Source of the DNA: Marsupella aquatica
Lineage: Eukaryota; Plantae; Marchantiophyta
Direction: 5' to 3'
Length of the DNA: 64,000 nucleotides
NCBI GenBank assembly: GCA_973895155.1
Contig: OZ316895.1
Span: 24,247,538-24,311,537 of the forward strand
How positions within the stretch are numbered: the stretch's first letter is position 1; each line of letters begins with the position of its first letter. The translations under genes were made by a program, and so were the position numbers. Positions 15,101 through 46,079 of this stretch are shown here, piece by piece. The notes below the pieces were generated by a model that made no database searches, was not told the DNA's origin, and saw only the letters and a program-made list of their open reading frames with translations.

Positions 15101-15774
15101 GGAAGCAAGCATCATACTGGAAGAAAAAGGGTAATACACGCACAGAGGCTTGGCAATGTGGGTCTGCTGGTGATTTAGAAGATGAATTGAATTCCAATAG
15201 GAGAACATGAAGTGTTCAGTCTTAGGTGTCTGTGGCGGTGACATCCATCTTGAGTAGATTGGACAAATTTAATTTTTCTGCAAGGAAGCTATTTTTCACT
15301 AAGTTTATGCTCCATCCTTCCTTGAAGAAGTACCTCCCTGCAGTTTTTGGCACTCGTCGGAGAGATGTAGCGATACTTGCTGCAGTTGCTGACCTAAAGA
15401 ATTGCTTGCAAAAAGTGAAGACTGCAAAGCGGAAAGACCATCTGGGTGCAAAGCAGATCTTGACAGTTGCATTGGCAGGCCAGGCCACAGTAGTGAATAG
15501 GTATCAGACTTCAATGGTTGGGGCTTTGGGTATCAAACAGCAAATCATATATAAAGCTTCAAGAAGGAGGAAGTCCATAGATTCCGATTGTTCGATAAGG
15601 TTTCCAATGGGGGAAAGGAAAGTGAGAAGCGACAAAATTTCAGCTGAAGTCCGAAGAATTGTGGAAAAGTTTTGGGAATCAAATACTCGAATCTCTCCTT
15701 GCGCCAAGGACAAGGCTAGACTAAGATTGAGTGTAAATATCAGCCTATTCATTAAAAGTGTATTATTATTTGAT

Positions 15775-16105
15775 TTATGTACATTTGGGCAGTGAAAAGT
15801 GTACTTTTGGGCTTGGAAAAGTGTACATTTGGCCAATGAAAAGTGTACATTTGGGGATAGAAAAGTTTACAATTGGCCTAAAGAGTGTACATTTGGGCAA
15901 TGAAAAGTGTAAATTTGAACATCAAAATAGATACATTTGGCTTTAAAAGTGTACATTTGAGTACATTTGGCCTAGAAAGTGTACATTTGAGTGCAAAATG
16001 CATACATTTGGCTTAACAAGTGTACATTTAAGTGCATTTGGTCTAGAAAGTGTAACTTTTAGTGCAATAAAGTGTACATTTGGCCTAAAAAGTGTACATT
16101 TGCCT
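15775..16105. repeat. Subterminal array of AAAGTGTACATTT(GG) motifs
   Basis: More than ten degenerate copies inside the left TIR; the same motif occurs at 28668-28750 and at both ends of copy 2. Confidence 0.85.
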
Positions 16106-16353
16106 ACCAACTCTTATTATAATCATTTAAAAGAAAGGAATGAATAGAAAAACATTTTTAATTATGTAGAAAAAGCAAACATTCATATTTATAATGATCA
16201 AAAGTTTAGAAAATGAGGAGATAGTATCACATTAAAACTATTAGAATAGTAAATAACTAGTACATAAATTACTATGTTTGAATGAGTGACTATCTTAGTT
16301 ACATAAAAACTAGTAACTATCTATTTAATTATTATAGCTTCTAACAACTAAGT

Positions 16354-19300
16354 CTACTTGTCCATCCTTTGAAGATAATTTTGGACAGTTTGTAGAACAT
16401 TTCGAGGGATCTTCAAACCTCTGCCTGCCATGTTTTCTTCTTTCATTCCAGATTTAAAACCATACATTGCAGAATTTGCATACTGCCAATGTTGAGTATT
16501 CTCACCAAACCCTGGATCTCGTTCCCATGTCTTAGTGGACATGAAACAATTTAGATACCGCGCACTCTCAGTCACATCAAGTTTACTAGAGTGTTTAGGC
16601 CTCCACCATTCAACTGGGAACATTGGAGCGTACTGTCGAGGCAGAGAAGGGTTTGTTGAAGATGTAGTTGGGACTTCATGCTTTGGGTCCACCAAACCCA
16701 AAGCTCTCACCAACCAGAAATGACCTCCACCATTTTTATTCTCCCAGTCATCCTCGGGTCGAAGAAATACAAAGTTTCCTTCACAAATATCTTGTAAAGG
16801 AATCCATCGTCCTTGTTCTCTCTCAGCTCGAGATCCAACAAATGGTGCTGCCTGATCTTCCATCTCTTCCAAGACCTCATTTTGAAGAGCCGTCATCTCT
16901 GCATTCTCCTCATCTTCACTTGGAGGACCACTTTGTTCCGGTTGGTTGACCTTGTAACCAGTGCCGTGGTTAGTCTTAGGCCAAAATCTGTTTTCCAAGG
17001 GAAATTGAGTACTTCCCTCCCCTTCTAGTGCGAGCCCATTTGTCAACAACTCCACAATTCTCTCCCAATATTTCACAAGAGGAAATCTTTCCTTATATGC
17101 TATAGATGTCTCATCAGTGCAACTCCTTCTCAAAAAATCAAGGTACTTGTTAAGAAATGGGATAATCTCTTCAGATTTTTTGTGTATCTCTCCAATGGAT
17201 TTAGCTAAGGGCTCTCCACTTGGTAAAAGAAGAGAATTTGTTGTCAGATCTGTTGCCCAAATGCACCTTCCACCAAGTGGAGCCCAAGCTTGCTTTACAT
17301 GGGACTTATACTGAAATATTGGTACATTATCTCTCATAGAGAAAAGAAATGATACAGGTTTTGAGTGACCTTGAATATCTTTCACCTTGAAAGTTTGAAG
17401 ATATTCTTTGTAAGATGCAACTTCTTGTATCAATCTGGGAACTGGATGAATGCTCTCGCATTCCCATACCTCTGCCATAAGAGCAAGGAGGGTTGCAACT
17501 TCTTTGTGCTGAACTTGATATGATACCTTTGAAAAGAGTGCATCAACATCTTCATGCGTATGACCAACCATTAGAAAAGACATTTGAACAGTTTCAAATA
17601 CTCCTCTACTCACAAGCTCGCTACAAAATGCCATGACAGTCTGGTTTTTGTTGTCCTTTGCTGAATTATCCATCTGCAATGTTAGGTGCCTTGGCAAGGG
17701 CTTGAACGATGGACTGCCTTGCTCTCCTTGCATGTCTTCTCCATCATCCTCATCTTGCTGGTTTGGGACGGTCTCAGTCCGACTCTCAGCTCCATCTTCA
17801 GAACCAATATACCTATTCACCGGTATATTCTTTGGTTCCAAATAACCCGTAAAAAATGCTTCAAAGTCAAGTAGGGCTTGAAAGAAAGGTCTGTGAGGTT
17901 CCCAATGAAGGCCATCCAACATGTCACCTGTCTTGTCTCCATTGTACTCTTCAAGGTCTCGAAGACACTTAGCCAAGGATGTCACCGTGAAATCGGCATC
18001 TCCTGGCCAAAGGCCAGTGACACTAAAGTGTGCATAAACTCCTGGATCCCTCCCGTGGGTCAACATCCCTGTGAGAGCAATAGGTAGCGGCATTCCATGA
18101 CCCGAAAGAGATTTAGGAGTACTAACCATTTTTGGAATCCATGTCTTTGCTTGATCCATCTTGTCGTGAATAATGCAAAGATATTCTCCTGGGTGTTGTT
18201 TGGCCATCACTCGATGAGCGTAGTAAACATATCTACGTGACATTTGCTCACGAAGATGTTGCGCTCGTTTTTCTTCAATTTCAGCACGTTCTTTTTTCCT
18301 TCTTTCTCGCATCAAACTGTCTTTGTATTCACAACAAAGAGTACACTTGGCAAATGCACCATCTTTATGAAAACTGAAGTTTGCAAATGAGTTACTCCAG
18401 ATCTTGTAGAGAGTATTCTCTGTGACAGGAGGAAGCCCTTCTTCCTTCATCTTTGTTCTCACATCTTCCAGAATCTCTAGCTTTTTGTAACACGCCGGAA
18501 GACGGTACTCAATAGAGTCTGTCCCATGTGCCCCTCCATAAGGCATATGAGGCATGGGCTCTGCATTTCGAGTCAAAAAAGCCTCCAACAGAGCTCGTGC
18601 ATGCAAGGTATTTGCCCTTGTTTTCATCAAGCCCGTATTGCCATGGAACCCAATTTTGCAACCCTCCACATATCTCCTTTTGTAATCATAATATTTGGTG
18701 TGGCTAAAACCGTGGATAATTGCAAATGCATGTCTGCATACGACCATACCCTTAAGAACATGGTGTCCCTTATCACGAACATCATCCTCTCTATAGTGAA
18801 AGAGGTTGAAAATATGTGACGTTTTTGACTCGCTTGACATCCCATGAAATTCCATCCTAATATCTTCGATGTTTTCCCTTGGCATAATGAGACAACATTT
18901 TTGCTTGCAACAATTTTCTCTTTTCACGTCATCAATTGACGCCTCTGTTGTTTTTGAAATTGCCTTGGTTTCCAACAACCTCCTCTTCTTTTCATTTGGA
19001 TCTACTTGATTCCTCTTGTTAAAATTGTAGGGCCTTGAACGCAGTACTCCTCTATCACTTACATCCGCATTGAGTTCATCCCTATCCATTGAGTCCATCC
19101 TTTCAGAACCTTCCACCAAAATATCTGACAAAAATTTTCCATTTGCAACTAGTTTTGTTGAATCAATCCGCCATCGAATCAAACTCACTACTCCCTTGTG
19201 GATGTTGGGAAAGTATTGTGCTGCCACGACATCTTTCACAGCAATCCCAACATGGTCATCACCAAGAATTTCATCATCAACTGCCGCCATCACTTGAGGG

Positions 19301-20115
19301 GCAGTGATCGTTCCCGTGGCAACCATTTTGGTTCGATCCAAACCAGTGTAGAGTTCAACCAACTCTGACATCCAGTTTGCCCGATGAAAATAGTCACACT
19401 TAGTGTCTGTGGTGTTTTCCGAACAAGACTGTGAAACAAAATCCGCCTTGTCCTTCTGCTTCTTAGAGGAAGATTTGTTGCTCCCATCGATATCAACATT
19501 CCATACTTTATTGTGGACGTCAGCCACATCCCATAGAACCCAGGAGCCCTTTGCCTCTTCAATTGTTGCAGCTCCACCATGTGCGTAAGGTAAAGTCTTA
19601 CTACCATGAATCACATCTGTGATTTTTACACTAACCCGAGACTCACCGAGTAATATGTTATGACATCTCTCCATTGGATCAGTGTTGAAAACAACTCCAA
19701 AGGCCACACAATGGCCAGAGATAAACATTTCAACCTCATCACCTGGCCTTAGGGTGGTCGAAGCATCCTCCTGTACATTTGCAGAATTATGGATGTTGTT
19801 ATCTTTTCGAGTCGAACAACTACCAATACTGATGCGTTTTTGAGTAATCTTATCCGCAGATCGATATGCACATGACATATCCCAAATGACACATGAGTCA
19901 ATGGCATCATGAAGATTTTCCGCCCTAGGCATTGGAAAAGGGAGCTTCCTGGTCTCACCAAAGGCCTTCTCAATGAGAACCCCAATTCGATTCTCTCCCT
20001 GCACAATATTTTGAACACTCTCTTGCGGATCTGTCTTTTGAACTGTCCCATTTCCAACGTCGTAACCATCCATTGTCAAGGTCACATCATCGCCCCTAGA
20101 AAACCTTTGAGACAT
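16354..20115 (-). CDS. Sola1-like DDE transposase (~1250 aa) with three N-terminal TNP1/Transposase_23-like repeats; uninterrupted ORF
   Basis: CCxxxCC and CTLCC cysteine motifs; IIHDKMDQAK, LQMDNSAKDNKNQ, FLMVGHTHEDVDALFS. Met of MSQRFSRG is conserved in copy 2 (MTGRFSRG). Confidence 0.88.
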   Translation of the reverse strand: MSQRFSRGDDVTLTMDGYDVGNGTVQKTDPQESVQNIVQGENRIGVLIEKAFGETRKLPFPMPRAENLHDAIDSCVIWDMSCAYRSADKITQKRISIGSCSTRKDNNIHNSANVQEDASTTLRPGDEVEMFISGHCVAFGVVFNTDPMERCHNILLGESRVSVKITDVIHGSKTLPYAHGGAATIEEAKGSWVLWDVADVHNKVWNVDIDGSNKSSSKKQKDKADFVSQSCSENTTDTKCDYFHRANWMSELVELYTGLDRTKMVATGTITAPQVMAAVDDEILGDDHVGIAVKDVVAAQYFPNIHKGVVSLIRWRIDSTKLVANGKFLSDILVEGSERMDSMDRDELNADVSDRGVLRSRPYNFNKRNQVDPNEKKRRLLETKAISKTTEASIDDVKRENCCKQKCCLIMPRENIEDIRMEFHGMSSESKTSHIFNLFHYREDDVRDKGHHVLKGMVVCRHAFAIIHGFSHTKYYDYKRRYVEGCKIGFHGNTGLMKTRANTLHARALLEAFLTRNAEPMPHMPYGGAHGTDSIEYRLPACYKKLEILEDVRTKMKEEGLPPVTENTLYKIWSNSFANFSFHKDGAFAKCTLCCEYKDSLMRERRKKERAEIEEKRAQHLREQMSRRYVYYAHRVMAKQHPGEYLCIIHDKMDQAKTWIPKMVSTPKSLSGHGMPLPIALTGMLTHGRDPGVYAHFSVTGLWPGDADFTVTSLAKCLRDLEEYNGDKTGDMLDGLHWEPHRPFFQALLDFEAFFTGYLEPKNIPVNRYIGSEDGAESRTETVPNQQDEDDGEDMQGEQGSPSFKPLPRHLTLQMDNSAKDNKNQTVMAFCSELVSRGVFETVQMSFLMVGHTHEDVDALFSKVSYQVQHKEVATLLALMAEVWECESIHPVPRLIQEVASYKEYLQTFKVKDIQGHSKPVSFLFSMRDNVPIFQYKSHVKQAWAPLGGRCIWATDLTTNSLLLPSGEPLAKSIGEIHKKSEEIIPFLNKYLDFLRRSCTDETSIAYKERFPLVKYWERIVELLTNGLALEGEGSTQFPLENRFWPKTNHGTGYKVNQPEQSGPPSEDEENAEMTALQNEVLEEMEDQAAPFVGSRAEREQGRWIPLQDICEGNFVFLRPEDDWENKNGGGHFWLVRALGLVDPKHEVPTTSSTNPSLPRQYAPMFPVEWWRPKHSSKLDVTESARYLNCFMSTKTWERDPGFGENTQHWQYANSAMYGFKSGMKEENMAGRGLKIPRNVLQTVQNYLQRMDK

Positions 20116-20169
20116 CCTTTTCCTATTATCCTGCACACTGAAAAAAATGGATTACAACCAAAGTCATGC

Positions 20170-20945
20170 AAATTTTGATTCAGACTGCGATCCTCAAAGT
20201 CTGGATTTGGACTACGATCCTTCAATTCCGGATTTGGACCGGGACCATCCAAGTCCGGATTTGGACTACGATCCTCTGATTCTGGATTTGGACTAGGACC
20301 ATCCGAGTCTGGATTTTGACCGGGACCATCCAAGTCCGGATTTGGACTGCAATCCTCTGAGTCTAGATTTGGACTACGATCCTCCGATTATGGATTTGGA
20401 TTGGGACCATCCGAGTCCGGATTTGGACTGGAATCCTCCGAGTCTAGATTTGGAGTACGATCCTCCGATTCTGGATTTGGACTGGGACCATCCCAATCCA
20501 AACTTGGACTCGGACCATCCCAATCCAAACTTGGACTCGGACCATCCAAGTCCAAACTTGGACTTGGACCATCCCAATCCAAAGTTGGACTCGGACCATC
20601 CTAATCCAAACTTGGACTCGGACCATCCCAATCCAAACTAGGACTTGGACCATCCAAGTCCAAACTTGGACTCGGACCATCCCAATCCAAAGTTGGACTT
20701 GAACCATCCTAATCCAAACTTGGACTCGGACCATCCCAATCCAAACTAGGACTTGGACCATCCAAGTCCAAACTTGGACTCGGACCATCCCAATCCAAAC
20801 TAGGACTTGGACCATCCAAGTTTAAACTTGGACTCGGACCATCCCAATCCAAAGTTGGACTCGGATGATCCCAATGCAAAGTTGGACTCGGATGATCCTA
20901 GTCCACATCTGAATCCAAACTTGGACTAGGACCATCCTAGACCAA
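20170..20945. repeat. Array of the palindromic motif TTGGAYTCGGA-CCA-TCC(C/G)ARTCCAA, mostly 27-bp units
   Basis: Unit TTGGACTCGGACCATCCCAATCCAAAC repeated many times; lies just upstream of the transposase splice acceptor. Confidence 0.92.
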
Positions 20946-21599
20946 CCCATAATGTAACGGGAGATAAACTTCAAACATTTTAAGCTAAGAAAATTCCAAA
21001 TTTAGGAAGACTCCGTATTTTACGGATCTCCCTATATGGTGTAGCCTAAAGTTTGCGTGGTCTTAAGGTAGACCCTAATGTCTACATACAGTTTCATGAA
21101 ATAATGAAACCTAGCCTTATATTTGAATGCGTTAACCTTATACTCACCTTAGTATTAAGATCTGGTAGAATATGAATATCACATCCAAGGGGGATACATT
21201 GTTGTCTGTAGATTGGTAAAAACTTTCCCAGAACCCTGAAATACAAGCTATATGCCACTAAATCTTGGGAGTAAAAAACAAACTGAACCCTAAACCACAC
21301 ATGTCTGTAAAAGATAAACTGAGAGGACCCCAAAAGTCAAGAAGCTGGCTAAGCTGACCCATTGAAGGTAAGTGGCTCAATACATAACACTTTAAGAGAA
21401 ACTCCGGATTACATGGAGCTTAGATTTGGGAAACTAGAACAAGAATGAGCTCCGAAGTGGGCGTCTCCCGAAATATACCCTTTGCTCGAGTCGGCTCAAA
21501 CGGAAATCGCGTGAAGATAAGGGTTGAGTACCCCTTCACCTTAGCTTGCGGCACACCTTATCTTCACGAGCCTAATTGCGCGGGGACTACCGTGCAAGG

Positions 21600-22007
21600 C
21601 TGTTAGGTAGGCAGGACATCAAGGAAGGAGGCCCGTATGCAGGGTGCGGGCAACGGGCCGTACGCAGGAGCAAGCCGTACGCACTATCAGGCCGTACGTA
21701 GGAGAAGGAGGCAACCGGCCGTACGCAGGCCGGGGTGAGGCAGGAGGGGGTAAAGGGACGGAGAGGTCCAGCCAGGACCTCATTCTCATTCTCACTCTTT
21801 CGCTCCTCACTCTGCTCACGCTCTCCACTCTCCGCCTCCGCTCTCTGCTCTTTGCCTTCACTCGCTCGCTCTCCTCGCTCTTTGCTCTTCGCTCTCTCTC
21901 CGCCTCCCCGCCTCTGCCTGCTTCCGCCTCCACCTCCATTCTTTTTCATTGCCCTAAATCGGACGCCTGCTAAGAAGCCACGTGTCACTCTGCCACGTGT
22001 CAGAAAG
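21600..22007. promoter_or_regulatory. Probable divergent promoter/leader: CT-rich tract and two GCCACGTGTC (G-box/ABRE-like) motifs
   Basis: Lies between head-to-head genes; CT-rich 21780-21945; GCCACGTGTCA at 21977 and 21992; equivalent tract and motif in copy 2 (40107-40270). Confidence 0.5.
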
Positions 22008-22169
22008 ATGGAAGCGAATCGCGTCCTTGTGAAGTCCTCCGTGGAAGCAACAGAGGAGTTTGACCTCTCCTCTATGAGCGACAGTGTAGAACTGGCACTT
22101 GAAGACTCCAAACAATTTCAATCAAGAATCCCTAGTAAGTATCCATCACCTATCCTCCCTAAGTCTTAG

Positions 22170-22512
22170 AGGACTGGGACCATCCGAGTCCAAAGTTGGA
22201 CTCGGATGATCCCAATCCAAACTTGGACTCGGACCATCCCAATCCAAACTTGGACTCAGATGATCCTAATCCAAACATGGACTCGGATGATCCCAATCCA
22301 AAGTTGGACTCGGATGATCCCAATCCAAAGTTGGACTCGGACCATCCCAATCCGAACTTGGACTCAGATGATCCTAATTCAAACGTGGACTCGGATGATC
22401 CCAATCCAAACTTGGACTCGGATGATCCTAATCCATCCAGGAGATTGAATCTCGATTGTAGGAGCAAGACTAAAACCATCTCAAGTTGGACTAGGACCAT
22501 CCTAATCCAACA
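22170..22512. repeat. 27-bp palindromic-unit array in intron 1 of the ParB/MTase-like gene
   Basis: About 10 units of TTGGACTCGGA(T/C)(G/C)ATCCCAATCCAAA. Confidence 0.9.
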
Positions 22513-24359
22513 AGAGTTATTCAAATGTTTTAAACTTAATAAGTCTAACATGGATGATGTTTTTATGATGCAGGGAGCGATCTTGTTGGTTTCAAACCCG
22601 CGATTGCACTGACCGACTGCCGGGACGGATTCTTACTAGATGAGAGATCCCCAGGCTTCTGATGGGGGCTTGAGTTCTCAAGAACCCCGCTTAATAATGA
22701 AGTGCCATCAAGCACGATTGAACCTGTTTTGACCTTAAAGTGCAGAGCAAATGATAGCCTGACTTTGGTTTGCGGACCTGTGGTCTCTGTTGGCATTGGA
22801 GGGAGAGGGATGAATTCGGTCATTCTGGAGATGCACGATAGGTCATGCTGGGTTAAAGTTAACCTTATGTCAAAGGCATACTCCTCAGAATTCAATGTCG
22901 AATGGCACGCAAGTGGTGAATTGAGCGTTTTGTCAATGGGATTTTTTCCAAAGACATATGACACAAAGAAGTTGGTCATCGGGGTAACTGGTATGCTTCC
23001 AGTCGACATTATGTATGGGTTTCAATATTTGAAACTCAACATGATGAAGCACCAAGGCAATTTCTCTTTTGCAACTACTTGGACGTTAAGCAATTTACTT
23101 GAGAAAGTTGGATTGTTATCGTTGGAGTCAGAGGAGCCTGGTGTTTTAATTGATAAGGATGTTGCATTTGATCCCAACTTTGATTTAGTCAAAGCAAAGC
23201 AATGGATAGAATCTTTGTCAAAGACGAGAAACCTTCCAACGGTGAATACAAACCCTGTGCCCGAGAAGGCGCCAGAGAAAGCTCCAGAACCTACAACAGA
23301 GACCGCGGGAACTACAGCAGCAACCTCTCAAAGAGCAGTGGGAAAACAAAAACAAAGCCAAAGGAAACCTCCGGTTGAAAAGAAACTTCCAGTTGAGAAG
23401 CTGGTTGAGAAGCCGAGTACGAGAAGCCGAGTTCAGAAGCCAGTTGAGAAGCCGAGTACGAGAAGCCAAGTTGAGAAGCCAGTTGAGAAGAAACGTCCGG
23501 TTGAGAAGCCAAGTGCAAGTGAAAAGAGGCCAAGACAAAAGAAGAAACAGAAAATTGACAGTGTCATCATGGATGACACTACAGAAAACCTGACAGTGCA
23601 TTCACAAGATATGGACGAGCAGTTGGACGCTCCTGAGGAGAAGAAGGTCTTAGAAGGTAATGAGGTACTACAACAAATGGAGCAATATTATACGTTTGGG
23701 ATCAATTCGATATTTTCTATTCCCGTAGAGAGTATTTTCCCTGCGTCGGCAAGACTCTGTTACAGAATGTTGAATGCAGACCATGTAAAGGAGGTGGCCA
23801 ATTCCATGATAAGAAATCCGGGGCATGAACCACACATAGCAGACTTGATTCCTTACACTACAAAACATAGAAACCTAATGCAATATGACAACACGGAATC
23901 AGATAGGAGGGACTTTGTAGCAACCGTGAAAAAGGGGGAGGTTCAATTCCTTGCCATTAGCGGTCAACATTCAGCCAGAGCAGCCAGATGGATTCGAGAA
24001 TGGGCAAACAAGGATGCCAAGCTAACAGCATTGGCAAAAAAGCTGGAATTTCGAAAGTCAAGAATATTATCTCATCGAACACCATCATCAATATTAGTTG
24101 AGCATTCAATGCGATCTAATGCTATCAATAGCACGATGGTGTTTCAGTCATGCTTCAAAGATACAGTCGTTCATGCTAGGCGGCAATTTGTGGAATGTGG
24201 AAAACCTAGTCGGCCAAAACATGGGGACAACAAAACAAACGCTCAAGACAATCAAAAATTTCAGGTATGAAGTGTTACTGCTTGATTGGTACAATACCGT
24301 AGACTCTCCATGTGTGATTACAATTGAGATGGTAGTCTTTGACCACAAAGCTTCAAGTT

Positions 24360-24705
24360 TGCTTTGGATTGAGATGGTCCGAGTCCAAATGGATACATTC
24401 ACATTCAGTAGAATATTTCCACTGATATCGTCTAGTTTTGTGTTGGACTGGGATGGTCCCAGTCCAAATGGATTCATGCACATTCAATAGACTATTTCCA
24501 CTGATATTGTCTAGTTTTGTGTTGGACTGGGATGGTCCCAGTCCAAATGGATTCATGCACATTCAGTAGAATATTTCTCCACTGATACCGTCTAGTTTTG
24601 TTTTGGATTGGGATGGTCCTAGTCCAAACTAAATCATGCACATTCAATATAATATTTCCACTGATACTGTCTACTTCTGTGTTGGACTGGGATGGTCTCA
24701 GTCCG
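24360..24705. repeat. ~80-bp tandem repeat with the same palindromic core, in intron 2
   Basis: TTGGACTGGGATGGTCCCAGTCCAA cores at ~24443, 24522, 24603, 24682 with related spacers. Confidence 0.85.
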
Positions 24706-27358
24706 CACCTGAGTGCTTTCAAACAATTGAGTTATGGAGAACTAACAGACTTTCCTTTGCAATTGTAGGATTGGTTGGCTCTTGCAAGAATGACCATGGG
24801 AAGGAAAGATTGTCGTAATGTCTACTGGTTACTGTTTGCCGACAATGCTCTTTTTGATTTATGGAGTTTGGTATGCCAATTGTGGTTGGATGGGAAACTT
24901 CCCGATGGAGCTGGTGTAGAAGGAAATGAGAAGTCTGAAAAAGCAATTACTGTTGCCATGTTTCGTTGTTTTGATGGTGAGTTGATCTCACAACGAGACA
25001 TCACAAGAATACTGACGCGGGTGAAGTCAGGAAAGGTATTGCTAAAGAAAGATGCCTCTAATAAATCAGACATGCCATCTATAGAGGAGTTGGCCAAAGA
25101 TGTGAAGATCGTGCGGAAACTCAAGTCCCTTATTGAAGACTACTATTGCACCAAGGATGCGGTGAATTTCCCGACAAATACTAATTGGGGGAAAGTAGTT
25201 GAGGTTCTTCCTACGCTAGCAATTGATTCAGAGTTCAGCAGGTGTCGAAGAGCCGCTGGCGAGGTCTATCTTGCCAACCTTTTAAAGCCAAATCATACGC
25301 GGGAGAGCGCAATCTTGCCGACGGCATTGGTATTCCGCCTAGATGATATATACTGCCAGAGATTTGGCGGAGGATCACGTTCTCGGACCCTACCATGGGT
25401 TACATTTTTTAGCGACAATCTCATGAAGACCATTGATCCAGAGTCATTGCAAGAAGCTCCTCCGACCTGCCCTCTTGCCATTGTTGATTTTAGCCGGCTT
25501 CCACAAAAACAGTGGACTGAAGCAGAGATTCTTGTTCTCTTTGAATACATTGTGGAGCTTCCACAAAATCCCACGATTGTGGTGACGATAACAGTTCATC
25601 CTGGACAACTTGCACTGAATGTCCATGGTGCCCTTCGTAAATTGGGACAAGAGAAAGCTTTGACCATTCACATTGAGTATGGGAGTTATTCACGAGATGA
25701 TCAACCGCACCCTCATGACTCATGTTGGGGTGGAGGGATTGAAGAAGTTATCTTTGCAGGGATTTCTCGAGATGAAGACGTCAATTGGAATGAAGTTTTC
25801 AAGCCCAACTATCCAAAGCCAAAATTCTTGTATACTTCAAAGGATGTTGATTATGAAGTATGCAAGATCGACAAGGGAAAGGGGAAAGCTAAGGAATCAG
25901 ATGAGGGGACACAAAACGACGACCTAAAAGTGGTTTTGGACCCGGAAGAGGCCGTCAAGATTATGAATATGGCCCCTCGATTTGAGACAGTTGGTAGTCG
26001 CGGAGGATGGGTTAATCCTCATGCCAAACCCACGCGGATGATCCGAAGGATTATTGAATCCTTATCAGAACCGGGAGATTTGGTTCTAGATTTTTTCTCC
26101 GGTGGCCAAGTCATGAAGACATCATTTTTTTGCGATAGGGAATGCTTTGTTTATTGTGACTCTCAGTCCGAGAGGCATTTTGTGGAAGCTTTTGCTTCCT
26201 ACCTTTGCGAAAGAGTTCCCTCACTTAAAGCCCATTGTGAATCACTTGCTGAAAATTCTCGACAATGGGCTACCACTATTGCGGCTGTAGCTGTCGCTGT
26301 TGAATCCGACGGTTCTGAGTCTGAAGATGTTGCTGACAAAGTGGCTAAAGGCGTAGAGGCATCAGACGAGGCATATGTCAAAAATTTGGATGACCGTGTT
26401 GGTCAAGGTGAGCCTTACGATGTAGATGATGATATTGGACTTGCACCAAACCGTTCATCTGGTTTAGATGACATCCCTCCGGGGCCCCATGAAGTTCAAG
26501 TTGATGATAACTTGGACAAGGATGATCCCAATCCAACAACGCCGGGAGGACAGATGGAGCAACTGGAAGGAGCAAGGGTTGATATGTTTGATCATCTTTC
26601 TTCAACCAATCTGATCAACGAAGGCGCAACGAGGCTTGGAGATTCAAATGAAGCTGAAACTAACGAATTGACTCGTGGGGAAGCCGGCGGATTGCCTGAC
26701 ATTCCCATCAATCCAGGAGGAAATGCATCAACGGCTGCTGACAACCAGGCAGGTGCTTCAACTTGTCCTGACACACTCTTTTCAGCTTCTGATGACAAAT
26801 TGGTGTTCGTTCGTTCACACTCGAGGAGTCCTGTTGTCCTTCCGTTCTCAAAAAAGAAAGGGAATAGAGTTGGATCAACTGGATGGAGGTCATTGGAACG
26901 CGATGCACGATGTTACGTGTGGAAAAGTGGGCCAAATCGAGGCCAAGAAATATCATTGGAAGCTGCTCCTTCAATTCTCAATAAGGAGGAGTATAAGAGG
27001 GGAGAATTGGGGTTCATAACTCCTGTTTGGACTTCTCCTTATTGGGTAGAACAAAGTACTTCAGATGTCAATTTTGAAATCCAACAGGAGCTTGGTGCTG
27101 ACATGATTATTGATGAATACGGATCTCTTATTTCGGAATGAAATTCAGCCTTTGACTTTCTATTTATGTATATCAATCTAAAATACTTCTCGGTCTCACA
27201 GAATGGGCTCACCAATTAAAGTCTCCATATCCGTCTACACATTGTGAGGCTTCTAAAAACGGTATGTAGGTTAATTTTCGTTTTTGTCAGCCATTGTGTT
27301 GTATTTTTGGACTGAGACAATCCTAATCCAAAGTTCACTTTTGGTCTTTTCTCTGAGA

Positions 27359-28417
27359 ATGGTGTTTGGTGCACTTGCAGAATCGAGACCTGGTCCCGTC
27401 AAGCGGAAGTTGCTGATTTTGGACCTTAATAAAATACTTTGGGATTCTATTGAATTCCAAAACAAGGGCACATCCAGGAATATTGTCACCTCAAGTGGAG
27501 TGCATTGGGATAGAAAAAATGGTATTAGTCGCATGTATACAGAACGACCAGGGCTCCATGAGTTTCTAAAGTTGGTTTTTGACAGATTTGACGTTGCAAT
27601 TTGGACTTGTGCTGGGGTAGAACGAACAGTGAAAATGCTGAACATGATGTTCACTGTTGAGGAGCGGTTGAAACTTAAGTTTGTATTCACACAGGTGGAA
27701 GCCTTTGACACAGGCATTCAAAGGCGTGACATTACAAACGGAAAGGCAAATGTGCTACTGAAGGATTTTCAGGTGGTATGGAATGCATTTGGAAATCTAT
27801 ATGATGAAACCAACACCCTCCTTGTGGATGACTCCCCCCTTAAGGCATTTGCCAACCCAGACATGACCGGATTATTTCCAGTGCCCTACACGCATGCCAA
27901 TCGTGGAGATAATTTTCTTCTAGCAATTCTTTGGCCATGTCTTGAGAAACTATCACATGCAAGTGACATTCGATGCTATCTTCTTCTCAACTCTCCAAAG
28001 TGGTCTCTTTTGCACATGAAGAGAGACAAGGCAAAAAATGAGATTACTTATGATCAACTTAGCAAGAGATTTGCAGCAAAAATTTGGAAGTCACAGTTTA
28101 CACATAGTGTGTTGGACCTCAACAGTAATGAGATCCATTGGAATGTAAAGCACCGTATATGTAGTTTACGTCCTGAGGTGGAACTTGACAATGCACTTGT
28201 CAACTCACTTGCTAAATCATTTTTAGGAAAGGACTATTCAGGTCCATATAGAGAAAATCCCAGACACTTTTTGCGGGAGATTATAGCCATTAGGAACAAC
28301 ACCACCAGATTTCAACTCCCTGAAAATAAAGTGAGTTGCAACCGTGACAATAGGGTAGATAGGAAAGGAGACAGGGGCACATGCTCAAATACACATTGTA
28401 GGGAGCACTTGGTTTAG
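27359..28417 (+). CDS. FCP1/NIF-family HAD phosphatase-like cargo protein (352 aa), intact
   Basis: KLLILDLNKIL, ERPGLHEFL, FDVAIWT, LLKDFQVVW, NTLLVDDSPLKAFANP; motif I is DLN rather than DxDxT. Confidence 0.85.
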   Translation: MVFGALAESRPGPVKRKLLILDLNKILWDSIEFQNKGTSRNIVTSSGVHWDRKNGISRMYTERPGLHEFLKLVFDRFDVAIWTCAGVERTVKMLNMMFTVEERLKLKFVFTQVEAFDTGIQRRDITNGKANVLLKDFQVVWNAFGNLYDETNTLLVDDSPLKAFANPDMTGLFPVPYTHANRGDNFLLAILWPCLEKLSHASDIRCYLLLNSPKWSLLHMKRDKAKNEITYDQLSKRFAAKIWKSQFTHSVLDLNSNEIHWNVKHRICSLRPEVELDNALVNSLAKSFLGKDYSGPYRENPRHFLREIIAIRNNTTRFQLPENKVSCNRDNRVDRKGDRGTCSNTHCREHLV

Positions 28418-31174
28418 ATATTTAATTGACTTGTGTTAAGCCCCTTGGATAGTACTAGAAACATGTTCGTATTCAATGTAAATTTGCAGATAATTGTATA
28501 AAGATATTTTATAATCTATTTGGAATGATGTTATTTTGTTCACAGAATATCTGGTCCTTAAATGGGGATGAAATAACTTTATAAATTTTTATCCTCCATT
28601 TCTATGTGAGTTATTAAATAATATAATATGTATTATTTATTAATATAATATTAATGTGATTTGGCCTATAAAGTGTACATTTAGAGACACAAAAGTGTAC
28701 ATTTGGGTGTCTTGAAGTGTACATTTGGGGACATGAAAGTGTACATTTCAAGACTCATTTGTGAACAAAAGAAAATACACTTTTAATGAATAGGTTGATA
28801 AATGTGTACAAGGAGCATCGGGTGCATTGGCCGGAGGATACCCAGGTTAGATTTTGTTAATTTGTCATTATCAATGACATTCAAATAGGGCTTACAATAG
28901 GGTACAGGAGCTTTCATGTTCATCAGTAAGCGATTTGAACTCAATTGCATCTTTGTTTACAATGATTGAATATGTTTTGAAGCAAGGCTTGCATCTTTTT
29001 CAGGTGGAGTTTTTTCTAAAAATCCAGGAGTTTTGCAGCAGAGATGAGAATGGAGTTCATATAGGCTTCAGGTCTTTTCAGTATATGAAGCCTTACTACC
29101 TTCGTCCTATGAAAGACACAAACGTTTGAATGTTGCTGTAAGCAACATGTTGAAATGGACCTCTTGAAGGAGGCAATCAACAAATTCAGGAAGCATGAAC
29201 ACAATTAGCATTGCTCTTGTGATTGCCCCATTTGCACATCATTGATGCTCTTTTGTAGAGTTGTGTAGCTTCTAGAACAACAATAACATCTGTATGGGGC
29301 TGGATAGAGGGAGCTCTTTGTCCAAGAGCTGAGGGGAAGCAGTGGCATGGAAAGAAATGTATCATGGGTTCCTGTAAGAATTGTGGTGTCAACAAGTTGG
29401 ATTGGTGTACATCTGAGTTAGATCCAGTTGACAAGCAATTTATTGAGTGGGAGACATTTCAGTATTTGGAGTTAGACAAGAAAGCCCAGCAAAAGAGAGA
29501 GAAGAAAAAGGAACTGACGAGAGTGCTACAAAAAAGTCAAAACGGTTGAGAATTGTGTTTAAGAGAACTTCAATGGGTGAATTCAAGAGTCAGGTTTTGA
29601 ATACAATGAAGACATTCATTGTGCATAATTTTAGAGCACGTTGGCGGTCTAAACAACTTTGTTTGAAAACTTTCCCTAGAGGAACTATAGTGTCATCTAT
29701 TGATTTCTCTGAAAATTACACGTTCAAAATCCAAAATGAGATACAGAGTCAACACTAGGATAATAGACAGGTCACTTTGTTGATTCATGTCACTTATAGG
29801 CATAGAGAAGATTGTGTGGAATCTCTGGAGGCTGCTGTTGGAAGTACGGTTCAAATGGCATTGGATGAGGAGGGTGGTCGAGACATTATTGCAGATTATC
29901 ATTTTTATATGAGTGATGACAAGTGTCACGACACTCTCTTCGTCCAACATTGCATGGATGCTCATAACCAGTGGATGAGGGAGGAAGGAATTCAGTTTGA
30001 GCAACATTGGGTCTGGTCAAATGGGGCTACTTCACAGTTCAAGGCTTGCAGACCTTTTTATTATGTATCCAGATACTACAAAAGATTTGGTGCACGAATG
30101 AAGTGGTATTTCCACGCTTCAGGGCACAGAAAAGGTGTCGCTGTAAGTTGCAATATTACTTTACATGTACATCTGCTCATTCCAGATTGTGTTTTAAGCT
30201 GAAGTTCCCTATAGTAAATTTGTTGTTCTATATTGATTCATCCAAGTTTCATTTCATGAGATGAGTACTATGGTGTGTGCTTTTAGGATGCCCTTGGAGG
30301 CCACATAAAGCAAGAGATTGAGAGAGAACAGCTGAAGGGAATCCATGGACATCGATTGGAGAATGCCCATGATGTGGTTTTGTTCTGCAAGGACAAATTT
30401 GCTATGGGCCAAGAAAAGGAGTATGGAGACGTCCAACTTGTTTGACGCCTGTTTTGGGAGATTCCAATGGGAGCTGTCAATCGCAAGAAGAAATGGGACT
30501 GTGATCCTATCCCAGGTTCCCGATCCTTACACTGCTTTGATGGATTTAGTAACCGCCTATCAACTCTCCTTCAAGTTAGAGAACTGTGTTGTTTTTGTCC
30601 TCATTGCTTAGATGATGAACCTTTGCAATGTGAGAATATAAGTTGGGCTGGACAGTTTAAGCTTGTCATGGTGAAAGGAGTCCTTCCAAGTGATGTGAGA
30701 ACTGATGTGGAAGAAATGGGAGTGGGGGAAGGACTGTACCAATGGGAGGATGGGCTGCTGGCCGAATTGGTTCAACAAGGTGACTTCGTTGCAGTGAAGG
30801 CTGAGATAGGTAACAAGTGGAATGTGGACTTCTACATTCTTCAATGTGAGCAGACTTTGCACACTATGAAGAAGAGTTTCAAGGACTCGTATGGAGAGGA
30901 ATTTAACGAGGGTGATTTAGCTTTGAGGGCAGTGTGGTTTCAACAGGTCCTAGGGCGAGATAACAAATTTATGGTGAACGATCTAGCTAGCGTGAGCTAC
31001 GCCCATGCTGAGACAGTAGTTCACCTTAGATTTGGTCTCACTCCATGTGAGGCTGGAAAGGGACGATATAGAATGTATACCCTTGAGCCCAAGACTCTGG
31101 CAGCAATATATGCATTCTTGGGTTCCTAGCAATATGAAGGAGGATACTGAGGTGTGTTCACCATTTTTTCTCCA

Positions 31175-33730: not shown

Positions 33731-34117
33731 ATCAACCTATTCATTAAAAGTGTATTTTCTTTGGTTCACAAATCAGTCCTGAAATGTACACTTTTATGTC
33801 CCCAAATGTACACTTTATGAAGCCCAAATGTACACTTTTTGATACCTAAATGTACACTTTATAGGCCAAATCTTATTAGTATTATATTAATATATTATAA
33901 TAGTATTATAATAGTATTATATTACTTATTAGTTCACAAAGAACCATGGGATAGAGATCATACTTGTAAAAACATTTCCGCACAAAGAAGCCCAGGCAAG
34001 GACCATTGATTGATAATGTGTGAAAATAGTTATATACAATTGTGTCCAAACTTACAATGAATATCCAGGGCTGACACCCATTTTTACTATCTAATGGGCT
34101 TAACATGAGTCAGATCT

Positions 34118-35176
34118 CTAAGCAAAGTGCTCCTTACAATATTTATTTGAGCACGTGCCCTTGTCTCCTTTACTATCTACCCTAATGTCACGGTTGCAAC
34201 TCCCTTTATCTTCAGGGAGATGAAATTTGGTGGTGTTGTTCCTAACTGCTATAATCTCCCACAAAAAGTGTCTGGGATTTTCTCTATACAGACCTGAATA
34301 TTCCCGTCCTACAAATGATCTAGCAAGTGAGGTGACAAGTGCATCGTCAAGTTTCACCTCAGGACGTAAGCTACATATACGGTGCCTCACAGCCCAAGGA
34401 ATCTCATTGCTATTGAGGTCCAGCACACTATGCCTATACTGTGACTTCCAAATTTTTGCTGCACATCTCTTACTAAGTTGATCATAAGTAATCTCATTTT
34501 TTGCCTTGTCTCTCTAAATGTGCAATAGAGACCACTCTGGAGAGTTTAGGAGAAGATAACAACGAATGTCACTTGCATGTGACAGTTTCTCAAGACATGG
34601 CCAAAGAATTGTTAGAAGAAAATTGTCTCCATGATTGGCATGCGTGTAGGGCACTGGAAATAGTCCGGTCATGTTTGGGTTGGCAAATGCCTTCAAGGGG
34701 GAGTCATCCACAAGGAGTGTGTTGGTTTCATCATATAGATTTCCAAATGCACTCCATACCACCCAAAAATCCTTCAATAGCACATTTGCCTTTCCATTTG
34801 TAATGTCACGCCTTTGGATGCCTGTGTCAAAGGCTTCCACTGTGTGAATACAAACTTCAGTTTCAACCGCTCCTCAACAGTGAACATCATGTTCAACATT
34901 TTCACTGTTCGCGGCATCCCAGCACATGTCCAAATTGCAACGTCAAACCGGTCAAAAACCAACTTTAGAAACTCATGGAGCCCTGGCCTCTCTGTATACA
35001 TGCGACTAGTTCCATTTGATTTATCCCAATGCACTCCATTTGGGGTCACAATATTTCTGGATTTGCCCTTGCTTTGGAATTCAAGAGAATCCCAAAGTAT
35101 TTTGTTAAGATCCAAAATCAGCAACTTCCGCTTGATGGGACAAGGTCTCGATTCTGCAAGTGCAACAAATACAACT
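34118..35176 (-). pseudogene. FCP1/NIF phosphatase-like gene, copy 2, frameshifted
   Basis: Three ORF fragments nearly identical in protein sequence to 27359-28417. Confidence 0.85.
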
Positions 35177-35388
35177 CTTAGAAGAAAACCAAATTTGAAC
35201 TTTGGACTGAGATTGTCTCAGTCCAAAAATACAAGACGATGACTAACAACAAAGAAAACCTACATACCATTTTTAGAAGCCCCAAAGAGCGTAGGTGGAT
35301 ATCGAGGCTCTAATTGCTGACCGCATTCTGTGAGACCGAGAAGTATTTTAGATTGGTATGAAAAAATGGAAAGTTAGACGGTTTGATC

Positions 35389-38300
35389 TCAATCTGAAAA
35401 AATAGATCCGTATTCATCAATAATGTCAACACCCAGCTCCTCTTGGATTTCAAAATTGACATCTGAAGTACTTTGTTCTACCCAATAAGGTGACGTCCAA
35501 ATAGGAGTTATCAATCCCAATTCTCCTCTCTTATACTCCTTCCTGTTAAGAATCGATGGAGCAGCATCCAATGAAACTTCTTGGCCTCTATTTGGCCCAC
35601 TTTTCCACACGTAACATCGTGCATCACGTTCAAGTGACCTCCATCCGGTTGATCCAACTCTATTCCCTTTTTTCTTTGAGAGAGGAAGGACAACTAGACT
35701 TCCCGAGTGTGAACGAACAAAAACCAATTTGTCATCAGAAGCTTAAAAGAGTGTGTCAGGACAAATTGAAGCACTTGCCTGGTTGTCAATAGTCGCTGAT
35801 GCACGGGCTTCTGGGGTCATGGGATCTCACTACTTCGAAAGCCGTCCCGGGAATCAATTCTTGGGTGTCAGCTTCATTCGAATTGACCTGCCTATCTCCA
35901 CCATCAGTGACCAAATTGGTTGACGAACGATTTTCAAATGTATCAATGTCAATCGGTTCTCCAATTCGGTCACATTTGGATTGAGACCATCCTTGTCCAA
36001 GTTGTCATCAACCTCAACTTCATAGGGTCCACAGGGACGTCATCTGCACCTGATGAAGGGCGTGGTGCAAGACCAACGGTATCATCAACATCATAGGGTT
36101 CTATGCTTTCACTTTGACCTACACAGTCATCCAAATTCTTTGCATACGCCACCTCTGACGCCCCATCATCTTTGACTGACTTAGCGCCCACTTCTTTGGA
36201 ATTATCAGCTGATTCATGTTCGGCAGAAACATCCGCAATAGTGGGTTTCCAATGCCTAGAACTCCCACCACGAGGATCCCAATTTTCCTTGATTGAGGGG
36301 ACCCTCTCGCAAAGGAATGAAGCATACGCTTCCACAAAGTGTCTCTCATCTTGAGAGTCACAATAAACAAAGCATTCGCGTTGCACCAAGAATGCTATCT
36401 TCATCACTTGACCACCCGAGAAATCAAGAATCAAGTGTCCAGCTTCTGACAAGGATTCAATAATCCTCTGTATCATCCGCGTGGGTTTGGCATGTGGATT
36501 CACCCAACCACCACGAGCACCAACTATCTCAAATTGAGGGACCATGTGCAAAACCTTGGTCGCCTCTTCTGGGGTCAGCATCATTTTTAGATCTTCGGGT
36601 TTTGACACGTTGTCTGTGTCAACCTTCGCCTTCCCAGTGTCAATCTTGGTGACCTCAAAATCAGTATCTTTTGAACCAAAAAAGAATTTTGGCTTTGGGT
36701 GATTGGGTTTGAAAACATCATTCCAATTGACATTTTCATCTCGAGAAATTCCTGCAAATATAACTTCTTCAATTCCGCCTCCCCAACACGAATCAAGCGG
36801 GTGCGGTTGATCCTCTCGAGAATAACTCCCATAGTACTCAATGTGAATGGTGAGAGATTTCTCTTGTCCCAATTTTCGAAGTGAGCTTAGGACATTCATT
36901 GCAAGAGGCCCCGGATGAACAGTTATGGCTACAACGATTGTAAGATTTCGTGGTAGCTCCACAATGTTTTGCAGAAAGACCAAAACTTCTGCTTCCGTCC
37001 ACAGCTTTTGGTGATCTCGACTGAAGTCAACAATGGCAAGTGAGCACGTTGGAGATGATTCTTCTATTGCTGGTGGATCAACTGTTTTCATTAGATTGTC
37101 ACTAAAGAATGTGCCCACGGTTGGCTCCGAGAATGTGTCCCTCTGCCAAACTTCTGGCAATAAATGTTATCAAGGCGCATCACCAGAGCTATTGGCAACA
37201 TTGCACTCTCCCTGGTATGATTTGGCTTCAACAGGTTTGACAGAAAAACTTCACCAGCCGCTCTTCTGCATCTACTAAATTCTGCATCAACACTCAACAA
37301 TGGCAGAACCTCTACTACTTTCATCTAGTCGGTATCCGACGGGAAATTCCATGGATCCTTGCCGAAGTAGTACTCTTCAATGAGAGACTTGAGCTTCCTC
37401 ACTTTTTTCACATCCTTCGCAAGCTCCTCTATTGAGGGTATGTCAGATTTATTTGTGGCATCTTTCTTCAGCAATGCCTTTCTTGACTTCACTTGTGTCA
37501 GGATTTTTGTGATGTCTTTCTGTGAGATCAACTCACCATCAAAGGGACAAAACATGGCAACGGTAATTGCTTTTTTGGACTTGTTATTTCCTTCCACCCT
37601 AGCTCCATCAGGAAGTTTCCCATGCAACCACATCTCACAGACTAACCGCCACAACTCAAAAAGATCGTTGTCCGCAAAAAGTAGCTAGTATACATTTCGC
37701 AAGTCCTTCCTACCCATAGTCATTCTTGCCAGAGCCAACCAATCCTACAATCCAAAAGGAAAGCTACTCAATTATCCCCAACTCAAGGGTTGGAAAAAAA
37801 GGATTCTAAGTGCGATAATAGTTTTGGATTCGGATGGTCTCAATCAAAAACAAAACTCGTACTAAACATTCCAAAAGTTCCAATACTCTTTGACAAATCG
37901 TGTCGGACTGAGACCATCCGAATCCAAAATAGAATTACTCTCTATGGTAGAGAAATGCACACAAAGTAATCACATTTCTTACCTGAAATTTTTGGTTGTC
38001 TTGAGCATTTGTTTTGTTGTCGCCATGTTTTGGTTTGTTTGGATTTTCACATTCAACAAACTGCCGCCTCGCATGGACAACTGTATCTTTAAAGCAAGAT
38101 TGAAACACCATCGTGCTATTGATGGCGTTCGATCTCATGGAGTGCTCAACAAGAATTGAAGACGGTGTGCGATCAGACAATATTCTAGATTTCTTGAATT
38201 CTAACTTCTTGGCCAATTGGGTGAGCTTGGCATCCTTTGTTGCCCAATCACGAATCCATCTCGCAGCTCTTGCAGAGTGCTGACCACTAACGGCTAGAAA

Positions 38301-40097: not shown

Positions 40098-40934
40098 TTT
40101 TAGGAGTGACACGTGGCAGGATATATTGAGGACACGTCAAGATGGGCAAGATCTAGGGTGTTGCAGTAGATTAGGGCAAGAAGGCAATTAGGGCAAGGGC
40201 AAGGGATAGCAGCGGCAGCCAGCCAAGAGCGAGGAGCAAGGAGCGAGAGTGAGGAGCGACTGAGAGCAAAACAACAATGAGGTCTGTGGAAGACCTCGTC
40301 CTCCCTTTACCCCCTCCTTGTTTGCGTACGGATGATCGCTGTACGGATAGAGACCGAGAAGGGATCTGGTCTTATCAGTTTGGGTGGGACACTAGCTGTA
40401 TTGTCTGACACAATGGATTGAAAAAGGAGTGGATGATTGTTCTAATGCAATACTCAGTGTTGCCTCAACCTTATCGGATCGCACATTCAGGGCCAAACAT
40501 ACCAAACAACGAGTATAAGAGGTCCTCTACAGACATCATTGTTGTTTTAGTTTCATATCTTCACTTGGGCATCCAGGTCTGCGCAACTCCTCCTCAGCTC
40601 TTCCCTCTAATGGAGTTTAGACTTGAAGTGGCTTTGATAGCTTTCTTAGTCAGTTTGATATGAACTTATTCATCAATTTAGAGGTAGCAGAGCCAACTTT
40701 GGAGACATACTGGAAAAACAAGACTGCTAAGGTGAGTTATGGTGTTAGTCGCTTTGCTTATTTTGAGTTCTTAGGGAAGAGAGATGAACCCTTTCACTTT
40801 GTTCTGCATTCTAATGACTTCCCAATAATTATTTCACGAATTACCCAATGTTCCAAAAAACCCGGAATGTCTAAATTTGATTAGGAAGAGATCTCAATCT
40901 CAATATATCCATCTCAACATAATCTTCATTGTGG

Positions 40935-41712: not shown

Positions 41713-41848
41713 TGATAGTTGAGCCAACGTTTGGATTCGCAGAATGGCAATCAAATGACCGTATGGATAATTGTGAGTTTCTTCAAATTCTTGTCATTCG
41801 GATTTGTGATGGTTTTTCTGAAAATTGTGCAGGTTACTAAATCCGAGA

Positions 41849-45644: not shown

Positions 45645-46079
45645 TTGTCACTAGCTAAGGTATAATTAGATAGTTACTAGTTTTTATGTAAGAGTTATAT
45701 ATATTGTGAGACCATGCCATTGAGTGTTTAGTTACTTAGTAGACTATCTACTCATTTTCTAAACTTTTGATTATTATGAATATGAATGTTTATTTTTTCT
45801 GCATAATTAAAAATATTTTTTATTAATTTCTTTATTTTAAATGATTACAATAAAAGTTTTCAGGAAAATGTACACTTTTTAGACCAAATGTACTCTTTGT
45901 TGCACTCAAAGCTACACTTTCTAGACTAAATGTACTAAAATGTACACTTTTTAAGCCAAATGTATCCATTTTTCATTCAAATGTACACTTTCTAGGCCAA
46001 ATGTATTAAAATGTACACTTTTTAAGCCAAATATACATATTTTGATGCTCAAATGTACACTTGTCATTGCCCAAATATA

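Follow-up and report, generated by a model that had tools for sequence, protein, structure and literature searches.

The stretch of DNA analysed here, hereafter the window, comprises 64,000 nucleotides of the liverwort Marsupella aquatica (assembly GCA_973895155.1, contig OZ316895.1, positions 24,247,538 to 24,311,537 of the forward strand). Positions 15739 to 28799 are occupied by a 13-kb Sola1-like DNA transposon with three coding regions, the limits of which are collected in Table 1. The first, on the reverse strand, codes for the transposase T; the other two, referred to below as the passengers, face away from it and code for protein A, a predicted combination of a ParB-like domain and a methyltransferase fold, and for protein C, of the NIF/HAD family. 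A second, diverged copy of the element (copy 2) lies inverted further along the window, and the 13-kb element is called copy 1 where the two need to be told apart. A sequence-only reading of the window had described these genes as a conserved kit, with passengers that are selected element machinery and might serve self-regulation or anti-silencing through DNA modification and regulation of RNA polymerase II (Pol II). The boundaries of the element, its second copy and the selection on its passengers proved to be as that reading had them, whereas the chemistry that it expected of the passengers was not supported.

Table 1 Features of copy 1, with the position of copy 2; exon and intron limits are predicted. 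TSD, target site duplication; TIR, terminal inverted repeat; UTR, untranslated region; o/e, observed/expected ratio
Feature	Position	Strand	Remarks
Left TSD AAAT	15735..15738	.	frame of the interrupted open reading frame restored only with the 4-bp model
Left TIR, 26 bp	15739..15764	+	
Left subterminal repeats of AAAGTGTACATTT	15778..16106	+	12 matches at <=2 mismatches
Transposase T, ~1253 aa, DUF7869	16354..20115	-	motifs IHDKMD, LQMDN, GHTHEDVD; Pfam E 2.9e-43
Intron in 5' UTR of T	20131..21148	-	27-bp tandem palindrome array, 23 matches
Spacer between divergent T and A/C units	21149..22007	.	CpG o/e 0.75, element maximum
A exon 1	22008..22134	+	ATG, phase-1 donor; likely also first exon of C
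A intron 1	22135..22573	+	palindrome array, 11 matches
A exon 2	22574..24264	+	N-terminal domain, K/E/P-rich linker, ParB/DUF3723-like domain
ParB/DUF3723-like domain of A	~23620-24264	+	ISGQHSAR at 23956; atlas features
A intron 2	24265..24768	+	79-bp repeats with palindrome, 5 matches
A exon 3	24769..27141	+	helical region, methyltransferase fold, acidic linker, conserved C-terminal domain
Beta-class amino-methyltransferase fold of A	~25380-26240	+	DFSR at 25486, DFFSGGQV at 26089
Internal exon of C, 60 nt	27202..27261	+	bounded by AG and GT, phase 1; no stop codon in either copy; 60 bp past A's stop
C intron	27262..27380	+	one palindrome
C main exon	27381..28417	+	NIF/HAD domain and Cys-rich C-terminal tail; DLNKIL 27422, DDSP 27827; Pfam NIF E 1.7e-15
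Right subterminal repeats	28670..28748	+	4 matches
Right TIR, 26 bp	28774..28799	-	
Right TSD AAAT	28800..28803	.	
Copy 2, second subfamily, inverted	33731..52814	-	TSD CTTA; decayed; 29 palindrome matches; Copia at 46080-52684

The two 26-bp TIRs of copy 1 match at 25 of 26 bases and are flanked by AAAT on both sides. Removal in silico of the element together with one AAAT brought the interrupted open reading frame (ORF) back into frame (...SVN joined to VYKEHRVHW...), and the corresponding empty-site joint is present in contigs of three of four public runs. Ends with a TA duplication of the Tc1/mariner type were ruled out, given that they fail to restore the target frame and that the TSD of copy 2 is CTTA. 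When the 64 kb were scanned with the TIR (<=6 mismatches), exactly four matches were returned, those of the two elements. The presence of TIRs and of 4-bp TSDs at two insertions (AAAT and CTTA) agrees with the Sola superfamily, the traits of which, like the protein motifs used below, were taken from the literature (PMC3845634, PMC8885841, PMC9033089, PMC10294476, PMC6431247). The AWWT target preference of Sola1 (PMC3845634) is seen at one of the two sites, AAAT fitting it and CTTA not, and the Sola1-1 element of Ectocarpus likewise deviates from it (supplement rows of PMC12477816). Tandem AAAGTGTACATTT words stand at both ends of the element, and these subterminal repeats are likely to be the binding sites of the transposase. 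Run X2 also yielded a deletion derivative (joint 16227-27585) in which both ends and most of gene C are retained while T and A are missing; the same joint maps on copy 2 as 34947 to 45743. Overall, this is a real cut-and-paste, multi-copy Sola1-like transposon family.

The T protein matches DUF7869, which we take to be the transposase family of Sola1. All three of its acidic motifs are present in 29 of 60 homologs, many of which are also listed with PF26133; the named ones include proteins of Riccia sorocarpa and Physcomitrium patens (E 7e-68 for the latter). In a tree of the transposase core, built from those cores with the outer motifs (30 of 61), T groups with P0025, P0026, P0027 and P0031 (support 0.84), and a member of the cluster of P0031 has a run identifier in common with the A homolog P0005, which is co-occurrence and not linkage. 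The N-terminal repeats of T are weakly similar to TNP1/DUF8039 (PF03017 at an E value of only 0.1). The splice model for the 5' UTR of T is predicted from motifs that are conserved in copy 2, and among the DNA contig joints listed none falls at a predicted intron. Between T and the A/C unit lies what is likely a bidirectional promoter. G-box-like words (CCACGT/GACACGT) occur shortly upstream of the ATG of A in both copies (21826-22000 and 40100-40140).

Copy 2 contains the same three coding regions in identical order, with splice sites conserved at all four introns. All three of its genes contain stops and frameshifts, and it harbours a Copia element with 477-bp long terminal repeats that are 99.8% identical (TSD ATATA); this young insertion hit the subterminal repeats of copy 2. 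Copy 1 is itself imperfect, with a premature TGA at 22660 in gene A. At this position another base accounts for nearly all the contig depth in four of four runs, and contigs also read otherwise at several of the breaks of copy 2, so that the stop and these breaks are defects of single copies. Matching stretches were found in six public runs with three organism codes; in five runs 30/30 bins of each copy were covered, and both subfamilies were recovered end to end in 4/4 runs each. Among the long contigs listed for run X1, the depth over T and A is similar for type 1 (363-455 in seven of eight pieces) and amounts to 159-207 in four pieces for type 2. Depth does not equal copy number, though these values hint at some 15-20 type-1 and 8 type-2 copies if depths of 20-22 are taken as single-copy.

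Comparison of the two copies by the Nei-Gojobori method with bootstrap intervals gave ratios of non-synonymous to synonymous change (dN/dS) of 0.23 [0.19-0.28] for T and 0.21 [0.18-0.25] for A over 1240 codons each, and of 0.36 [0.23-0.57] for C over 343 codons. In the ParB part of A the synonymous sites are saturated (pS 0.75, pN 0.11). None of the three ratios, which the sequence-only reading had named as a check on its proposal, is near 1, and since those of A and C lie below 1 we consider both passengers to be under selection. Together with the end-to-end recovery of both subfamilies and a homolog of A at locus L001 that is ~32% identical and shares an intron with its second join, these values bear out the claim that the cargo is not a one-off capture, and the passengers are very probably selected parts of the family.

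Divergence is distributed unevenly along the element. Of the four-fold degenerate sites, 67 of 415 (0.16) differ across the T core, C and the final part of A, against 206 of 409 (0.50; Fisher p 5e-26) across most of A and the N-terminus of T, so that the central block is ~3x more diverged than the ends. At the protein level, T is 65-67% identical between the copies in its N-terminus and 90-92% in its core. The contrast drawn earlier, of conserved protein motifs and differing spacers, is in part a matter of position, the non-coding A-C spacer being 18% diverged, no more than the neighbouring synonymous sites. Recent shared ends around an older central block suggest that this block has been exchanged between subfamilies.

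Gene A is predicted to consist of three exons with 1396 codons in total. The join of exons 2 and 3 agrees with that of the annotated homolog P0002 of Calypogeia fissa, the species of the closest named homolog (45%). Two further domains of A (26701-27138 and 22576-23220) are conserved, without a convincing Pfam match, and the C-terminal one (26701-27138) is recognisable in all six homologs. A structural model of exon 3 (mean pLDDT 71, alignment of 7 sequences) superimposes on CcrM with a Z-score of 16.8 and a root mean square deviation of 3.4 over 197 residues, and a Foldseek search returned beta-class methyltransferases at E 2.1e-7; both the fold and the motif order of this class were found in A. 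The S-adenosylmethionine (SAM) site motif DFFSGGQV is invariant in 7/7 A proteins, although it is one residue shorter than in M.RsrI. The catalytic motif IV, [DNS]PP[YFW], was found in none of the seven. At the strand end that carries DPPY or DPPF in five beta-class enzymes of phages, the eight family members all read D-[FL]-[SGTA]-R. In rotifer N4CMT, replacement of SPPY abolished activity (PMC8885841). The lack of the motif suggests a pseudo-methyltransferase domain in A, and the DNA modification that the earlier reading expected of the cargo is not supported.

Upstream of the methyltransferase fold, the ParB-like domain of A has its nearest atlas neighbours among DUF3723 clusters (0.94) and ParB_N (0.91; atlas features 0.91-0.95 overall), the ten best named matches all belonging to one family or clan. 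Its structural model, from a 2-sequence alignment, has a pLDDT of 33.5. The GxxR arginine patch is the CTP site of ParB proteins. By-eye alignment indicated that A lacks the first arginine of this patch, with SGQHSAR in both copies vs SGHRR in one phage ParB. Being ParB-like, A is probably dimeric.

The upstream exon region of gene C offers no ATG in frame, and copy 2 has not kept the in-frame ATG at 27359. The 60-nt internal exon is of equal length in both copies and in phase with exon 1 of A. Together with the lack of a start codon in C, this is most simply read as A and C being alternative splice products; C is likely spliced onto the first exon of A, and both would derive from one unit that faces away from T. 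The three genes of the sequence-only reading hence stand as three proteins, which would probably come from two transcription units. The DxDxT motif of FCP1/SCP phosphatases is missing in C, where DLNKI aligns to DLDET of CTDNEP1, and its second Asp and its Thr are missing in all four close members (DLNKI, DLEKV, DLNKI, DLNGL). The first Asp, the Lys and the DD motif are retained in C, and host-type plant members of the family also read DLNG. Among NCBIfam models, HAD-IIID (E 3.8e-15) ranks above Dullard, which in turn ranks above FCP1 (E 0.005), and none reaches its cut-off (17 bits vs 135 for TIGR02250, 33.9 vs 139 for TIGR02251). The closest solved relative is UBLCP1, a proteasome phosphatase. 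The methyltransferase and Pol II carboxy-terminal domain (CTD) phosphatase labels given to the passengers hence describe a fold or a family and do not extend to the catalytic motifs, and Pol II regulation by C is not supported, in view of DLNKI and the order of the models. The Cys-rich tail of C (28320-28414), a possible zinc finger, is found in P0007-P0009 as well but not in NIF proteins of the host type.

A 25-bp quasi-palindrome, TTGGAyTnGGA-ccA-TCCnArTCCAA, recurs in all four introns of both copies. Copy 1 contains 42 matches, 40 of them intronic, and copy 2 contains 29, 26 of them intronic; elsewhere in the window there is none, and five shuffles gave 0-1. The arrays have periods of 27 and 79 bp in copy 1 vs 34/68 and 66 bp in copy 2, which indicates that the word was retained and amplified separately while the spacers were rebuilt. 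The word of copy 2 is palindromic at 22 of 25 positions, with perfect arms of 11 bp. Its sequence is subfamily-specific: position 6 is T in 39/39 half-sites of copy 2 and C in 37/58 half-sites of copy 1. Arrays of this kind resemble the anatomy of VANC-type anti-silencing, a likeness that is anatomical.

We propose, with a confidence that stops a little short of an even chance, that T acts via the terminal words, that A, with or without C, binds the intronic palindromes and keeps the promoter open, and that the central block is a specificity module. The central promoter would drive T leftward and a single A/C unit rightward, from which A and C would arise by alternative splicing of a common exon 1. 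A, with its ParB-like and pseudo-methyltransferase domains, would bind the palindromes, and bound A, perhaps with C as an adaptor, would protect the promoter block from host silencing. Subfamilies would swap or diverge the central block (T N-terminus, arrays, promoter and A) as one module while keeping common ends. The passengers would on this proposal be putative non-catalytic binders that keep the element expressed, in the manner of VANC. Each of the three enzyme-like domains deviates from its catalytic consensus while under purifying selection, which is more in keeping with binding or scaffolding than with modification of DNA or dephosphorylation of Pol II. The self-regulation or anti-silencing role put forward earlier is plausible, and the intronic arrays add one anatomical argument to it. 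A more specific version, which we consider unlikely, would have an ancient accessory module of giant Sola1 elements, of phage-type ParB-methyltransferase descent, turned in land plants into a dead, ParB/parS-like loader that binds the intronic palindromes, spreads over the promoter block together with an alternatively spliced pseudo-phosphatase and blocks silencing, the binder and its sites being exchanged between subfamilies as a specificity cassette.

Several observations weigh against the proposal. As many as 23 of the 60 T homologs are from Riccia sorocarpa, from which none of the six A and none of the six C matches derives, in a homolog search whose length window excluded full-length A. 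No public contig spans two of the three genes, so that their linkage is known from the window only. The placement of motif IV follows the topology of the model, as the profile alignment was not significant and a global alignment differs. The ParB assignment is made from atlas features, motif likeness and the published Ectocarpus architecture: the domain had no match in Pfam, PDB sequences, PADLOC or a phage tblastn search, PHROG gave only unnamed families at E 0.003 or worse, and a profile alignment with one phage ParB was not significant. The palindrome profile was trained on the array in the T intron, which makes that count circular, those in the other introns and in copy 2 not being so, and tandem matches are not independent of each other. 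The CpG o/e of the element (0.40-0.75) is no higher than that of the rest of the window (0.33-0.94) and hence gives no trace of lasting hypomethylation. For the C-terminal part of C the dN/dS is 0.63 (0.35-1.25), an interval that extends past 1. Lastly, the T N-terminus sits in the same divergent block as the arrays and could be their binder in place of A.

This last point leads to a different arrangement, on the unlikely side in our judgement though a serious contender, in which the N-terminal repeats of T bind the arrays and A and C assist transposition (synapsis, target choice or repair) instead of countering silencing. The position and divergence of the T N-terminus beside the arrays and its weak TNP1 likeness would suit such a role, as would the lack of any sign of protection in the CpG ratio; transposases can do without accessory proteins in activating their own copies (bioRxiv 10.64898/2026.08.24.746577), and DUF3723, the nearest atlas family of A, is a conserved Starship gene that has been likened to translocation machinery (bioRxiv 10.1101/2021.12.13.472469). 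Yet the ends carry a different repeated word, AAAGTGTACATTT, that is suited to transposase binding, the palindrome is located in introns around the promoter and not at the ends, and the N-terminal domains of related transposases in Riccia are similar while neither A nor C had a match there. A could instead be catalytically competent, methylating cytosine at N4 or adenine at N6 by means of an unusual active site and so marking the element's own DNA. The complete beta-class fold, the invariant SAM motif and a motif IV Asp in 8/8 members speak for activity, self-modification has been proposed for the Ectocarpus Sola1 gene (PMC12477816), and a liverwort has N4-methylcytosine written by a bacterial-type enzyme (bioRxiv 10.1101/2021.02.12.428880). 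Nevertheless PPY is changed to [FL][SGTA]R in all eight, the canonical motif occurs nowhere else in 7/7 proteins and motif I is one residue short vs M.RsrI, and we regard an active enzyme as improbable.

If the passengers were captured genes, under host selection or hitchhiking, they would have no role in the element and the arrays would be ordinary tandem repeats. The C family does have host members in flowering plants (P0010, P0012), and the deletion derivative described above shows that copies without T and A exist; but amplification of the same word took place separately in two subfamilies, in each of their four introns, the pairing of a ParB-methyltransferase with Sola1 recurs in a brown alga (PMC12477816) and the elements with these genes are multi-copy, with decay of single copies, all of which makes capture very improbable. 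Hardly to be expected, finally, is an active Pol II CTD phosphatase in C that tunes element or host transcription, a reading that does not exclude the others: the significant NIF match and the retained first Asp, Lys and DD motif are set against the lost residues of DxDxT in 4/4 close members, NCBIfam models that favour HAD-IIID and Dullard over FCP1 with none at cut-off, and UBLCP1 as the best solved relative.

As for the neighbourhood, both copies seem to be nested in one other DNA transposon (14000-15738, 28804-33730 and 52815-53150), whose transposase, with the motifs IDFSENY, WSNGATSQFK and ASGHRKG, is presumably of the Sola2/3 type. This enclosing element has AAGGACT repeat arrays of its own and an extra ORF on the reverse strand (32499-33302) with no Pfam match; it is multi-copy in public contigs, and its ends were not found. 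Adjoining the transposon nest are pieces of a Dicer-like gene (~3886-7361, reverse strand) with two RNase III domains, the second with the motif RLVFLGD, and upstream ORFs that appear PAZ-like by eye. Convergent ORFs at 11008-13544 resemble by eye a Harbinger-type pair (Myb/SANT-like and nuclease-like), and no Pfam match was obtained for the one scanned.

The trio was not found on one contig in a metagenome scan, in which 135 pattern matches came down to 1 locus of 1.8 kb, and viral scans were negative as well (0/1 and 0/74). No paper dealing with the trio, the lost motifs or the arrays came up in literature searches; the same searches missed the Ectocarpus case, so that absence from print is not established. 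That case limits the earlier claim that the combination is undescribed to the third protein, as a transposase with a ParB-methyltransferase in a 21.5-kb Sola1 has been published (PMC12477816). Nor is Sola transposase-only, since Sola2 elements with Fanzor cargo are known (PMC3627910), next to the ParB-methyltransferase gene of the Ectocarpus Sola1 (PMC12477816). New here are the setting in a land plant, the third product and the way it is likely spliced, the replacement of the catalytic motifs, an intronic palindrome that is specific to the subfamily and the mosaic nature of the central block.

Only for a few families (VANDAL/VANC, Spm/TnpA, Mu) is it understood how transposons evade epigenetic silencing, and the role of ParB-methyltransferase accessory genes in the giant transposons of algae is an open proposal. 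With two subfamilies, a 25-bp candidate site and near-intact copies, the present family makes this role directly testable in land plants, and the motif replaced in all family members seen challenges the assumption that accessory proteins write methyl marks. Should A be a sequence-specific de-silencer, the protein and its motif could be used for transgene protection; should it not be, the element is still a well-defined cargo-carrying Sola1 variant.

Among known systems, CcrM, M.MboIIA, M.PvuII, M.RsrI, rotifer N4CMT and Marchantia MpDN4MT1 share with A the fold, the motif order and, one residue shorter in A than in M.RsrI, a SAM-site motif; these enzymes carry DPPY or SPPY where A carries D-[FL]-x-R, and N4CMT and MpDN4MT1, unlike A, are host genes. 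DUF3723, the family of those named atlas clusters that lie closest to the ParB-like domain, is in fungal Starships likewise a conserved accessory gene of giant elements, although Starships are tyrosine-recombinase elements of fungi and A has no Pfam DUF3723 match. CACTA elements generate a 3-bp TSD, unlike the 4 bp seen here. CACTA/Spm with TnpA and TnpD does resemble the present element in its subterminal repeats, its accessory regulator and the alternative splicing of several proteins (bioRxiv 10.64898/2026.08.24.746577), yet it has a different transposase, and splicing there concerns transposase and regulator vs, as predicted, two passengers here. Inactive methyltransferase domains in DIRS1 elements and ParB-fused Dam in chlorophytes have been described (PMC4738411), as have Dam domains of retrotransposons that keep their active site (bioRxiv 10.64898/2026.05.21.726589). 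Large DNA transposons of green and red algae carry accessory genes for the same two-domain protein, a ParB-methyltransferase (Iyer 2011 and Petroll 2025, cited in PMC12477816), the red algal case being a giant EnSpm and not a Sola.

The closest described relative in architecture is Sola1-1_Ec32 of Ectocarpus, a 21.5-kb element with a 4-bp TSD and a ParB plus N4/N6-methyltransferase gene opposite the transposase, for which self-modification has been proposed and whose best transposase match is Sola1-1_PPa of Physcomitrella (PMC12477816). Like the Marsupella element, it is a giant Sola1 with its ParB-methyltransferase gene opposite the transposase; unlike it, it comes from a brown alga and has an imperfect TIR of 282 bp with AACCG termini vs 26 bp and ATCAG here. 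The accessible part of its description, by which alone the two were compared, mentions no NIF/HAD protein, intronic palindrome or lost motif. For the proposed function, the VANDAL transposons of Arabidopsis are the nearest parallel. VANC binds short, family-specific motifs, which occur as amplified tandem arrays in introns and other non-coding sequence (PMC5735166). Motif arrays in such places, differing between the two subfamilies, were also found here, in a large TIR element with an accessory gene, whereas VANDALs are of the Mutator type and the function of VANC is experimental vs anatomy only in the present case. Pfam scans named no VANC-linked family, and no VANC sequence was compared. If the loader version of the mechanism, considered unlikely above, is true, the Marsupella family would provide a second VANC-like system, of independent origin and beyond the flowering plants.

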